A stretch of 63,392 bases of DNA from Candidatus Aquitaenariimonas noxiae (GCA_002780005.1 PEWV01000060.1:1-63392), one strand, 5' to 3'. Shown: positions 9,594 through 12,864, counted from the stretch's first letter. A program made the numbers and translations. The notes: generated from the sequence alone by a model not told the origin.

Positions 9594-11165
9594 TTAGGCC
9601 GTTTTCAAATGGCTTTTTGCCTTTTTAAGTTTTTGGTTAAATGGGCTTTTTTCAAACTCTATAGTCCATTTTTTTAGATAGCTCCAGCCTACGAATCTTA
9701 TCATGTAATTCCGCCACGAGCGATTCCATCTTTCCCATCCGATCTTGATATTATGCAAAAAGAAAATTATGCTGGGAAATAAAAATATTTTCAATCCTAG
9801 CATAAACATATATTTGAATTGATAGAACCTGGTCATAATTTTCCAGGCTGAAAGCTGCATTTCTTCGGCTGTGAGGGGTTTGTCGGGTTCGAAAAGCGGA
9901 AAATTGCCGTCATAATATTCCCAACCTATGTCTTTAAGCGAATAAAGTCTATTTTGCCTTTCCAGTCGATTTCGCAGCTCTGTCCCAGGTAAAGGAACCG
10001 GCAATAAAATTTGAATAGTATCAAGTTTCGCCTTACTGATGAATCTTCTAAAACGTTTTATTCTTTCTTCTGGCGGCATGAAAAAACTAACTCCTTCTTG
10101 GAGCGGGTAAGCAAATATAAACATGCCATGTGTGACAAATCCGAATTTATGAAATACTTTGGCCAAGGATACCATTTCATCAGGCTTAAGACGCTTGTTC
10201 ATAGCTTTTAATTCTTCTTCTATAGGAGATTCGAAACCTATCGCCACCGACAGAACATTTGCTTCTCGCATAGCCGAAAGGAGTTCCGTGTCTTTCGCCT
10301 TATCAAGCCTTATCTGAACGCCAAAAACAAGCCTTTTGCCTGTACTTTCCTGATATTTTTTGATCATCTTGCAAAATCTTATCGTATCTTCCCGATGCTG
10401 CCCAAAGAGGTCGTCGACTATAAAAAACTTACGCGCGCCCCTAGTTTCGGCAAGAGAGCTGATGCGCTCTAAGAGGCGTTCCGGAGACGCGTCCCTGGGC
10501 TTACCCTTAACTGTGCAGAATTCGCAATCCATGCCGCATCCCCTTATTCTTTCTACAGGGTAATTAATAATTTTAGCATACCGAACTAAAGAGAAGTCAG
10601 GTAAAGGCAGTTTGTCAAAATCGGTAATAGGCTCTCTTTTTTGAGTAAAAATAACATTACCGTTGTCGAGATAAGCTACGCCTTTTACCTCACTTATATC
10701 CCCTTTTCCTTCTAATGCCAAAATAAGTTCTTTAATAGTTTCTTCGCCTTCGCCTATAACCACATAATCAACACCTGAAACCAGGGCCTCGGGTATGTCG
10801 CCGTTGCTAAAATGTTGGCCTCCGGCAATAGTTATGACTCCTTTACTTTTATAAAAACGCGCAAGCTCATATAATCTTGGTATGGTGCTTGTTAACCCTC
10901 CGTATAAACCAATAATATCAGCCGGCCGTATGTTCTGCAAAAGTTCGTTATCAACCCCGCCTGAATCGCCCCTCGGTCCATATTTATCGAGGTTGTTCTC
11001 ATCTATAACTTCCGCATCCCATCTATCCATCCTGTTTATAATGCTCGCGACGCATATCGGGCCTAAAGCGGTGGTTCTTTTGGCAGAATAGGAATAAATA
11101 TTAATAGCCGGAAAAAGCGGGATTAACATTCTGAATCTATATCTTTTTTTGGATGAATTGATCAT
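9594..11165 (-). CDS. B12-binding domain radical SAM protein
   Basis: RGCGMDCEFC (CxxxCxxC), GGQH, VVIGEGE, FFIVDDLF, AIGFES. Confidence 0.9.
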   Translation of the reverse strand: MINSSKKRYRFRMLIPLFPAINIYSYSAKRTTALGPICVASIINRMDRWDAEVIDENNLDKYGPRGDSGGVDNELLQNIRPADIIGLYGGLTSTIPRLYELARFYKSKGVITIAGGQHFSNGDIPEALVSGVDYVVIGEGEETIKELILALEGKGDISEVKGVAYLDNGNVIFTQKREPITDFDKLPLPDFSLVRYAKIINYPVERIRGCGMDCEFCTVKGKPRDASPERLLERISSLAETRGARKFFIVDDLFGQHREDTIRFCKMIKKYQESTGKRLVFGVQIRLDKAKDTELLSAMREANVLSVAIGFESPIEEELKAMNKRLKPDEMVSLAKVFHKFGFVTHGMFIFAYPLQEGVSFFMPPEERIKRFRRFISKAKLDTIQILLPVPLPGTELRNRLERQNRLYSLKDIGWEYYDGNFPLFEPDKPLTAEEMQLSAWKIMTRFYQFKYMFMLGLKIFLFPSIIFFLHNIKIGWERWNRSWRNYMIRFVGWSYLKKWTIEFEKSPFNQKLKKAKSHLKTA

Positions 11166-11204
11166 GCGGGGCTCCTGTCCTTTGATTGGTTTGGTAGGTA
11201 CTCT

Positions 11205-11263
11205 AAAAAGAAAAACCGCAAGGCGAATACCCTTTGCCTTGCGGTTTGAGATGTTCTCCTCTT
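11205..11263 (-). promoter_or_regulatory. Leader hairpin/terminator (attenuator-like) upstream of the radical SAM gene
   Basis: CCGCAAGGC/GCCTTGCGG 9-bp stem followed by TTTTTCTTTTT, located between promoter and start codon. Confidence 0.6.
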
Positions 11264-11276
11264 TTGACTAACATTA

Positions 11277-11305
11277 AGTATATCTATTTTTCTTCATTTT
11301 GTCAA
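11277..11305 (-). promoter_or_regulatory. Sigma70 promoter
   Basis: TTGACA-N17-TATACT. Confidence 0.75.
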
Positions 11306-11416
11306 ATAATTTCAAAATTAATAAGACGGTAATTAAACCTTGTTTTATTTGATTTTTTCTTAGGATGGACGCTGATTTGACATAAAACCGCTTTTTTAGT
11401 TTTGATTGTATGAGAC

Positions 11417-11450
11417 AAAAAAAGGCCCAGTCTTTGGGGACTGGGCCTTT
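11417..11450 (-). terminator. Rho-independent terminator of the csp gene
   Basis: AAAGGCCCAGTC/GACTGGGCCTTT stem plus T-run. Confidence 0.85.
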
Positions 11451-11463
11451 CTGATTTGCCAGG

Positions 11464-11664
11464 TTATATCTTCTTTACGTTTTTAGCCTGTTCGCCTTTG
11501 GGACCCATCGCGACGTCAAACTCGACTTCTTGGCCCTCGCTTAAAGACTTAAAGCCATCACCTTGAATCTCGCTATGATGCACAAATACATCCTTGCCTT
11601 CTTCAGGAGTAATGAATCCAAAACCTTTGCTATCATTGAACCATTTTACTTTACCTTTTGCCAT
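11464..11664 (-). CDS. cspA: Cold-shock protein
   Basis: GKVKWFN, KGFGFI, DVFVHHS; 66 aa; strong SD. Confidence 0.97.
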
Positions 11665-11715
11665 TATTTACTTTCCTCCTTTCCACATGAATTGCAGTAA
11701 GTTAAGAACAGAAAC

Positions 11716-11774
11716 AAAAAAAACCGTCAGGCAAGCTTCTTTCTGCCTCACGGCCCAAGATATCTATTCCTCTT
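11716..11774 (-). promoter_or_regulatory. csp 5' leader with hairpin and U8 tract (attenuator-like)
   Basis: CCGTGAGGCA/TGCCTGACGG stem followed by T8. Confidence 0.65.
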
Positions 11775-11785
11775 ACCACGGAAGT

Positions 11786-11814
11786 ATTATACCGTATCTA
11801 GTCCTGTTTGTCAA
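11786..11814 (-). promoter_or_regulatory. Consensus sigma70 promoter of csp
   Basis: TTGACA-N17-TATAAT, perfect match. Confidence 0.85.
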
Positions 11815-11832
11815 GATATAAGTTATAATACT

Positions 11833-12864
11833 TTAAAAAATTTTCCTAACATGTTGTCCGATATGGCGTTCTGTAAACTGAATGACCTGGCTCATTGTTT
11901 TGACGGCTTCCGCGGGATGGGCCCCGACAGACGTTTCCGCGGAGAGCATGAGATAATCAGAGCCGTCTATAACGGCATTAGCCACATCACTTACCTCTGC
12001 CCTTGTGGGCCTCGGATTCTCGGTCATGCTCTCAAGCATTTGGGTTGCGGTTATCACGAACTTGCCGGCTCGGTTGCACTTCCGTATAATCTGCTTCTGA
12101 ACTATCGGGACTTCATAAATAGGGATAGAAACACCCATATCCCCGCGCGCGATCATTATGCCGTCTGATGCGTCGATTATTTCATCAATGTTTTTAATGC
12201 CTTCCCGGTTTTCAATTTTTGCTATAAGTTTGCACTTGGGCAAGCCTCTGCTTATCAAAGACTTGATCTTCAGAATATCCTCCTTAGTGCGCACGAAGGA
12301 TTGCGCCACATAATCAAGGTTATGACTTATGCAAAAAAGTATATCCATTTTATCTTTTTCGGTAATAACAGGAAATTCCAGCCTCGCGCCGGGAATGTTC
12401 AGTCCTTTGCGCTCTTTAAGCAGCCCTCCTATAATTACGCGGGTTTTTAAGTTACTTTTCCCGCGGCCTTCTACCAAAAGGACTATATTTCCGTCGTCAA
12501 TATAAATATCCTGTCTTGCTTTTATAGCCTTTAAATCGCCTGCGTAATCAAACGAAATGATCTCGCGCGTTCCTATGACTTTTTTTTGCGTCAGGTAAAT
12601 AACCTGATTCTTTTTAAGCTCGATAGGCTTACGCAATCTGCCGATGCGAATACGGTTACCCTCGAGGTCACCCAATATCCTTACATGGCGAGCGTATTTT
12701 TTATTTAGTTCTCTTACCAATTGTATATTATCACGACATTCCTGGAGGCTTCCGTGAGAAAAATTCAATCTTGCCATATCCATGCCTGCGCGCATCATTT
12801 TAAGCAAAACGATTATCTTGTTTGACGCCGGCCCTAAAGTGCAGATTATTTTAGCGTTTGTCAT
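11833..12864 (-). CDS. pyk: Pyruvate kinase (short form lacking the C-terminal domain)
   Basis: [48 protein letters not shown]. Confidence 0.95.

Follow-up and report, generated by a model that had tools for sequence, protein, structure and literature searches.

The stretch of DNA analyzed here (the window, 63,392 nucleotides (nt) of Candidatus Aquitaenariimonas noxiae, GCA_002780005.1 PEWV01000060.1:1-63392) belongs to an Omnitrophota metagenome-assembled genome (MAG) of 1.93 Mb that is 97% complete with 42% GC, and DNA near-identical to this genome is present in groundwater and aquifer metagenomes. Two minus-strand genes of the window, one, designated csp1, encoding a cold-shock protein (Csp), the other encoding a B12-binding radical S-adenosylmethionine (rSAM) enzyme, are each preceded by a promoter and a structured leader built on the same plan. 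The initial annotation of the locus had proposed that these leaders form an unnamed cis-regulatory attenuator that places the rSAM gene under Csp or cold control. All elements were read on the minus strand, and coordinates refer to the whole window:

11464-11664, minus: csp1 gene, a cold-shock domain protein of 66 amino acids (aa) (Pfam CSD, E 1e-29; best NCBIfam match CspE-like), with the Shine-Dalgarno sequence GGAGG at 11675-11679
11786-11814, minus: csp1 promoter, TTGACA (11814-11809), 17 nt, TATAAT (11791-11786), matching 12/12 consensus positions; predicted start ~11779
11763-11779, minus: 5' strand of helix P1 in the csp1 leader, GUGGUAAGAGGAAUAGA, which includes AAGAGGA (11768-11774) and pairs with 11694-11712 in the minimum-energy fold
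11716-11753, minus: hairpin P2 (11724-11753) and U8 run (11716-11723) of the csp1 leader, resembling an intrinsic terminator
11694-11712, minus: 3' strand of P1 in the csp1 leader, UCUGUUCUUAACUUACUGC, the counterpart of the family's conserved UUUCUGCCGUUAUUUACUAU strand
11419-11452, minus: 3' terminator belonging to csp1 itself, GGCCCAGUC...GACUGGGCC with U7 after it
9594-11165, minus: B12-binding radical SAM gene, 523 aa (Pfam PF02310 and PF04055), with the Shine-Dalgarno sequence GGAG at 11172-11175
11277-11305, minus: rSAM promoter, TTGACA (11305-11300), 17 nt, TATACT (11282-11277), matching 11/12 consensus positions; predicted start ~11270
11255-11270, minus: 5' strand of the rSAM leader, UAGUCAAAAGAGGAG, with AAGAGGA at 11257-11263; pairs with 11199-11210 in the predicted fold
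11205-11244, minus: hairpin P2 (11216-11244, a perfect 9-bp stem) and U5CU5 run (11205-11215) of the rSAM leader
11199-11210, minus: 3' strand of the rod in the rSAM leader, CUUUUUAGAGUA, as placed by the predicted folds

Inspection of both leaders recovered every element and spacing of the shared layout that had been annotated. In the csp1 leader, the TATAAT box is followed after 11 nt by AAGAGGA (11774-11768) and, after a further 14 nt, by the P2 arms CCGTGAGGCA (11753-11744) and TGCCTGACGG (11733-11724), which flank a 10-nt loop, contain one G.G mismatch, and run into T8 (11723-11716). In the rSAM leader, the corresponding order is TATACT, 13 nt, AAGAGGA (11263-11257), 12 nt, and the arms CCGCAAGGC (11244-11236) and GCCTTGCGG (11224-11216) around an 11-nt loop, followed by T5CT5 (11215-11205). 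In each leader, 32 nt separate the -10 box from the hairpin, and one stem position is altered on both arms (U-A to C-G), in agreement with the annotated preservation of base-pairing. Within the 4 kb scanned, these two promoters alone reach 12/12 and 11/12 consensus positions. The window contains the pattern AAGAGGA-N8-18-CCGNNAGGC at two sites, versus none in 100 shuffles; of the pattern's three sites in the 1.93-Mb genome, the third (contig C19:12191) was rejected as a leader copy and attributed to chance because it lacks both the hairpin and the T run. The arm pair CCGNNAGGC...GCCTNNCGG is confined, genome-wide, to the csp1 and rSAM leaders. The annotated lack of a start codon after AAGAGGA holds for the rSAM leader, whose frame is open into the gene with no ATG, GTG, or TTG, but not for the csp1 leader, where a TTG 9 nt past AAGAGGA starts an 18-codon frame. 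A leader peptide was nevertheless rejected, since neither frame is conserved in the family described below.

A third copy of the leader lies upstream of a csp paralog, csp2 (contig C7, 18571-18768), and consists of TTGACA, 17 nt, TATCAT, AAGGGAG, CCGCAAGGC...GCCGUGCGG, and U8. The csp1, rSAM, and csp2 leaders can be aligned from the -10 box through the start codon, with the rSAM leader 64% identical to the csp1 leader and 71% identical to the csp2 leader, with neither singled out as its donor. A covariance model built from these three sequences (R1) matched only them in their own genome and, when genomes were scanned as the initial annotation had proposed, 195 of the 401 genomes in the same class, each carrying 1-3 copies; at the phylum level, 66 of 301 genomes were matched (E up to 1e-4), four of them in other Omnitrophota classes. 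A family model of 52 seed sequences (R2), which include the own-genome copies, gave 90.4 bits for the csp2 leader, 61.5 bits (E 3e-10) for the csp1 leader, and 43 bits (E 1e-5) for the rSAM leader, with no copy beyond these three in their genome. The exact family consensus was found in 14 public MAG contigs, 10 titled Omnitrophota or Omnitrophica and 4 Planctomycetia or Planctomycetales. In Rfam scans of the window (E up to 10) and of canonical copies (E up to 1), no family reached its threshold, consistent with the annotation of an unnamed RNA; the sole signal was RF01766 (cspA), whose scores (44.1 bits with the window copy, 51.3 and 32.3 bits with canonical ones) stayed below the gathering score of 78 and derived mainly from the csp coding region.

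The family consensus reads TTGACAAA, 17 nt, TATACT, ~7 nt, GUAGUAAAUAAGGGAnUAGAAGUCUUnGG, CCGCAAGGY, a loop, RCCUUGCGG, U7-8, nUUUCUGCCGUUAUUUACUAUAAUUU, ~8 nt, GAAGGAGG, and GUAGUAAAUA-AUGGCA. AAGAGGA is thus a local variant of the conserved UAAGGGA box within the 5' strand, and across 80 foreign leaders both the -35 and the -10 box show conservation of 90% or more at the position of the csp1 promoter. In csp copies, a TATAAT box that is dispensable for P1 pairing is ~90% conserved right after the P1 3' strand (TGCAAT in csp1, 11691-11696); it could serve as an internal -10 element, as an AU-rich translation enhancer, or as the loop of an alternative, locked form of the leader. Among 109 foreign copies retrieved with their downstream sequence, ~105 lie directly upstream of csp genes, which begin ATGGCAAAAGG. 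One copy precedes a DEAD-box RNA helicase gene (genome G011, locus L130) whose product matches the RhlE/CshA/CsdA models at its N-terminus, which fits a cold-shock regulon, and another (L123) precedes a cold-shock-domain gene remnant and a CxxC zinc-ribbon gene. Two copies on one contig (L060 and L071) carry a 100-nt insert between the TATAAT box and the Shine-Dalgarno sequence; csp follows L071, while L060 ends with the contig. The helicase leader is 82% identical to the csp leader of the same genome from the promoter to the U run and 53% identical beyond it, which identifies the promoter-to-U-run part as the portable unit, and the rSAM leader likewise retains this part. The annotated sharing of one RNA by csp and rSAM genes is thus borne out by leader copies at both.

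Comparison of the copies further revealed a long-range helix, P1, that encloses the hairpin and had been overlooked in the initial annotation. The leader folds as a rod in which the 5'-terminal purine strand pairs with a downstream pyrimidine strand, with the GC hairpin P2 and its 7-8 U enclosed between them. When the explicit structure (P1/P1b/P1c/P2) was tested on 52 diverse copies (alignment A6), 89.5% of cells were paired compared with 40-53% in slid controls, 15 of the 29 pairs had changed on both sides, and the covariation score was 0.221 versus 0.06-0.10, with the observed values reached in 0 of 500 shuffles. P1 itself (GUAGUAAAUAA with UUAUUUACUAU) was 94.3% paired in 99 sequences, with six pairs doubly changed (again 0 of 500 shuffles). 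Across the family, P1 is 92-94% paired with compensatory changes, while P2 is 92% paired and shows recurrent compensatory C-G/U-A exchanges. In some copies the whole of P1 has been swapped for a different yet complementary sequence, e.g. GCAGAGGAG/CUCCUCUGC in L147, and in four (L129, L133, L146, and L148) the junction tolerates extra GC hairpins of 20-60 nt between CAUU and AUUUACUA. RNAalifold, applied to raw MAFFT alignments of all copies, returned P2 alone, so that P1 required the explicit-structure test. The rod of the family measures ~25-28 nt per strand. In the csp1 and rSAM leaders, whose elements keep the family order from promoter through 5' strand, P2, and U run to 3' strand, the rod is the predicted minimum-energy fold, with P1 starting at the predicted +1. 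Taken together, we are highly confident that the csp1, csp2, and rSAM leaders are homologous copies of one structured csp leader RNA, both by family membership and by fold.

This structure bears on two other accounts of the locus. The first is a chance likeness of generic promoters and terminators, in which the csp1 hairpin would simply terminate the pyruvate kinase gene upstream of it:

11833-12864, minus: pyruvate kinase (pyk) gene, 343 aa

The end of pyk is separated from the csp1 -35 box by 19 nt, and the gene itself lacks a terminator, which makes P2/U8 of the csp1 leader the first terminator met by pyk transcripts. As the sole explanation, chance is nonetheless refuted by the unique arm pair, the family-wide model hits, and the covariation, and the csp gene preceding the rSAM copy is already equipped with a terminator; we regard this account as having next to no likelihood. 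The pyruvate kinase comprises the barrel domain alone (PF00224, residues 3-321), without the C-terminal domain. The second account divides the locus into two units, namely a ~65-nt small RNA made of promoter, purine seed, and terminator, and a csp or rSAM gene with its own promoter at the TATAAT box in the 3' strand. A promoter, a single-stranded seed, and a hairpin with a U tail are indeed typical small-RNA architecture, and the TATAAT box after the U run is conserved in csp copies; however, P1 covaries across the terminator-like hairpin, so that both sides act in one structured RNA, an RNA contig from a relative (described below) covers the hairpin through csp, and the box has no usable -35 element before it, is degenerate in csp1, and is absent from the rSAM leader. 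This division is therefore very unlikely.

The initial annotation had also missed that AAGAGGA forms part of a 5' strand mimicking the translation start region. In canonical copies, the sequence from the Shine-Dalgarno box to codon 2 (GUAGUAAAUAAUGGCA) repeats the 5' strand (GUAGUAAAUAAGGGAG), so that the pyrimidine strand is able to pair with either. In these copies, including csp2, the pyrimidine strand is complementary to the csp spacer, AUG, and second codon (UAGUAAAUAAUGGCA), and 88.7% of cells are paired between strand and start region versus 34-54% when slid. Two states can accordingly be distinguished in canonical copies, an open one in which the rod would be formed and the start site free, and a locked one in which the start site would be paired. 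When the start region was added, the locked fold came out as the predicted minimum-energy structure in 69 of 99 leaders, and its computed advantage in stability over the open fold has a median of 8.3 kcal/mol at 15 C. The energies of the competing duplexes, computed at the same temperature, were:

Family consensus: open -27.7, locked -38.4 kcal/mol
csp2 leader: open -25.2, locked -30.9 kcal/mol
csp1 leader: open -26.7, locked -22.1 kcal/mol
rSAM leader: open -17.5, locked -9.2 kcal/mol

These findings point to the 5' strand as a start-site mimic and thereby to a translational open/locked switch in canonical copies. Since the strands of the open rod are transcribed first, the rod would form first, as a kinetic trap that, by analogy with known csp leaders, cold would preserve and warmth or an RNA chaperone would resolve. 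The csp1 and rSAM leaders are derived copies whose sole predicted form is the open rod, with the locked form predicted to be weak (csp1) or absent (rSAM), even though the 5' strand of the rSAM leader (UCAAAAGAGGAG) is still similar to the start region of its own gene, UCAAAGGACAGGAG. The UUUGUUU motif is found in the csp1 leader and in most family members, with UUUUUCUUUUU in its place in the rSAM leader.

As had been annotated, the hairpin and U run resemble an intrinsic terminator. P2 in the leaders has a median energy of -14.3 kcal/mol with 7/8 U after the stem, compared with -18.5 kcal/mol and 5/8 U for the csp genes' own 3' terminators, so that judged by sequence the two are equally terminator-like. 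The element is placed between the transcription start and the start codon, ~35-65 nt into the transcript, and no upstream sequence is expected to compete with P2 during its synthesis. In support of the leader being transcribed with its gene, a contig from a lake-water metatranscriptome that covers a relative's copy (L154) begins ~10 nt after the predicted start and continues via the hairpin and U run into csp, with zero coverage upstream, although as an assembled contig it is blind to short products. In this relative, leader and csp thus form one transcript, which backs the assigned promoter and demonstrates read-through. A search for RNA from the copy of a peat MAG returned none.

Our favored explanation for the csp1 and rSAM copies builds on these elements. 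A consensus sigma-70-type promoter would start transcription right at the 5'-terminal purine-rich strand (consensus GUAGUAAAUAAGGGAGUAGAAG), after which the GC hairpin P2, 7-8 U, and the pyrimidine strand UUUCUGCCGUUAUUUACUA would follow, the last folding back on the 5' strand to form the rod with P2 at its tip. What remains of the canonical leader in these two copies would be the strong promoter, the 5'-terminal helix, and the terminator-like P2 with its U run. A share of the transcripts would end at the U run, and cold, Csp binding to the U-rich tract, or both would set the share that reads through; we infer both the termination and this response, bearing in mind that intrinsic termination in E. 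coli is reduced by its Csp proteins (PMC9765468). The cassette copied before the rSAM gene would bring it under the same csp-type control. We consider this explanation as a whole, i.e. csp leader copies with an open rod and partial termination tuned by cold or Csp, to be probable, and it is similarly more plausible than otherwise that the regulatory role of the leaders is tied to the cold-shock program. That premature termination is the controlled step at the csp1 and rSAM copies is put forward more tentatively, with somewhat less than even confidence.

Several observations weigh against this explanation. RNA runs containing the window DNA were looked for and none was listed. Inspection of the alignment revealed no convincing antiterminator, as the one alternative helix seen to use a P2 arm is a weak UCUU/AAGG option of 4 bp; a duplex between the AAGG box and the P2 3' arm, 4-5 bp at most, was rejected as a candidate, and a factor such as Csp acting on U-rich or purine tracts is a possible antitermination agent. 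The P2 loop is long (10-12 nt), which reduces terminator efficiency, and the U run is paired in both folds, with the purine strand when open and with Lys/Gly codons when locked, so that pairing alone could account for its conservation. The locked helix, for its part, showed covariation no better than shuffles, and its complementarity may be conserved because the start region is kept for other reasons. The rSAM leader was included in the seeds of both R1 and R2, and hence its model score is not fully independent. Finally, the initial annotation would have the motif conserved upstream of rSAM orthologs, whereas a covariance-model scan with filters off of 13 such loci, from 13 other genomes, found no leader before any of them. 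Only the csp leader downstream of the G034 ortholog scored, and weak hits at L017 and L009 were motif-less on inspection. The link between leader and rSAM gene is therefore lineage-specific, and co-regulation of rSAM and csp is no general trait.

Part of this evidence suits a purely translational thermoswitch, in which an open rod alternates with a locked start and P2 and the U run act only as folding nucleus and pairing partner, with no regulated termination. The predominance of the locked minimum-energy fold in csp leaders, the complementarity to the start region, the pairing of the U run in both states, the observed read-through transcript, and the close analogy with S. aureus cspB/cspC (PMC8034633) all agree with it. 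However, the predicted weakness of the locked form in csp1 and its predicted absence in rSAM leave the retention of the rSAM copy unexplained, the non-csp copies retain the promoter-to-U-run part and not the switch part, and some termination is to be expected anyway at a GC hairpin with U8 behind it. We therefore consider the thermoswitch alone to be unlikely. A further alternative is an element of mRNA stability or processing, whether as a 5'-terminal helix that shields the transcript from 5'-end-dependent RNases or as a duplex serving as an RNase III site, with Csp on the U-rich tract modulating cleavage. The start of P1 at the predicted +1 in csp1, rSAM, and the RNA-supported relative and the length of the rod strands would suit such an element, as would the precedent of S. 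aureus cspA, which is reported to be autoregulated (PMC5815144, cited in PMC8034633) via a 5' untranslated region (5'UTR) hairpin, RNase III, and a U-rich motif. Yet the rod is broken by internal loops, and neither the exact mimicry of the start region by the 5' strand nor the U run directly abutting the hairpin is explained, which makes this alternative rather improbable.

The leader probably ties the B12 radical SAM enzyme to the cold-shock program. Orthologs of this enzyme are widespread in Omnitrophota (63-73% identical). The protein reached no NCBIfam equivalog cut-off (best BchE, 97 bits vs a cut-off of 481), leaving the suggestion of a lipid-modifying enzyme in the initial annotation unsupported. 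In G034 (L009), the rSAM gene is followed 72 nt downstream by a leader-csp unit; in G015 (L006), the rSAM ortholog comes directly after a DEAD-box helicase gene; and in G019 (L024), csp and its terminator are followed after 25 nt by an rSAM paralog of 33% identity and the same architecture and then by ychF, an arrangement that parallels terminator read-through by E. coli Csp proteins (PMC9765468). These recurrent neighbors hint at a functional link of rSAM to RNA and cold biology and not to lipids. At the rSAM C-terminus (9594-9750, minus), a hydrophobic stretch (MFMLGLKIFLFPSIIFFL) precedes a Trp/Arg-rich tail (GWERWNRSWRNYMIRFVGW), both conserved in the G019 paralog, and these features suggest membrane or interface anchoring.

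The closest known counterparts of the leader family are the S. aureus cspB/cspC 5'UTRs, which have been shown experimentally to switch between open and locked folds, with CspA acting via a UUUGUUU motif (PMC8034633); the same open/locked logic is cited there for E. coli cspA. Both systems comprise csp 5'UTRs with two mutually exclusive folds, predicted ones in Omnitrophota: a long hairpin sequesters a strand directed against the ribosome-binding site when open, and this strand pairs, in Omnitrophota putatively, with the ribosome-binding region when locked. Both have paralogous copies in one genome and a U-rich UUUGUUU-type motif that is likely a Csp contact. They differ in that the RNAs share no sequence similarity and come from different phyla, the Omnitrophota switch being a prediction from sequence and folds. 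Furthermore, the Omnitrophota 5' strand lies at the very end of the transcript and copies spacer, AUG, and codon 2; the rod bears a GC hairpin and U7-8 in the shape of an intrinsic terminator, a term absent from the main text of PMC8034633; and copies also precede non-csp genes. The E. coli cspA thermosensor (RF01766, with its cold box) similarly combines a strong promoter with post-initiation control, an extended, structured 5'UTR with a co-transcriptional cold fold that is translatable (in Omnitrophota, by prediction), and a motif common to cold-shock genes, but the Omnitrophota leader has a different architecture and stays below the RF01766 threshold (32.3-51.3 vs 78 bits). A hairpin and U run that Csp could melt, coupling downstream genes to the Csp level, recalls read-through by E. 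coli CspA/C/E at metY-rpsO and by CspD at small-RNA terminators (PMC9765468), although the E. coli terminators are ordinary ones outside any conserved leader family, whereas for Omnitrophota termination and a Csp effect upon it are putative. S. aureus cspA (PMC5815144), processed by RNase III and carrying a U-rich CspA site, is alike in its long 5'UTR hairpin, in the U-rich tract of its leader, and in being autoregulated by its own product, while the Omnitrophota rod is imperfect and the RNAs are unrelated in sequence.

A full-text literature search returned no description of an Omnitrophota csp leader or of RNA-based csp regulation in this phylum, which has few cultured representatives. As a kind, such an element is known (a csp 5'UTR that has alternative folds and may combine them with attenuation); new are the sequence family, the embedded terminator shape, and the spread to non-csp genes. 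The findings would add a covariation-supported cis-regulatory RNA family that is absent from Rfam, occurs in about half of the class genomes, and is easily annotated. They extend csp control by 5'UTRs with mutually exclusive folds to a distant phylum, with the added twists of an intrinsic-terminator-shaped hairpin inside the switch and of a promoter-to-U-run cassette independently copied before DEAD-box helicase and B12 radical SAM genes, and they provide the first regulatory clue for this radical SAM family, which is ~70% identical across the phylum. A far broader scheme may also be outlined, which we hold to be improbable as a whole: a portable dual-level riboregulator would define a post-initiation cold-shock regulon in Omnitrophota, in which an attenuator tuned by Csp or temperature would be joined by the 5' mimic as a kinetic translation switch, an abundant, prematurely terminated RNA of ~65 nt would act in trans on every mRNA with the csp leader, given their shared anti-start strand, either by mimicking the start site or as a sponge for Csp, and rSAM would be a cold-adaptation factor, perhaps in RNA or ribosome biology given its neighbors csp, DEAD-box helicase, and YchF.

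Besides csp1, the source genome contains three more cold-shock-domain genes. The fourth csp gene (contig C1, 12113-12313, minus; L035) gave no match to the leader model and carries another hairpin, CCAUGAG...CUCAUGG with U7, ~25 nt before its Shine-Dalgarno sequence, a structure that could either terminate the gene upstream or represent an unrelated leader. Many csp genes have another, divergent cold-shock-domain gene (MHKGKI..RDRGFGFI) behind them, represented in the source genome at C7 18848-19039 (L034/L036) with a QPAQP repeat tail; in other genomes csp is followed by a CxxC-x17-CxxC zinc-ribbon gene (TIGR04272) with a Gly-rich N-terminus. The pairing of csp with a divergent cold-shock-domain or zinc-ribbon gene looks like a conserved small RNA-binding operon.

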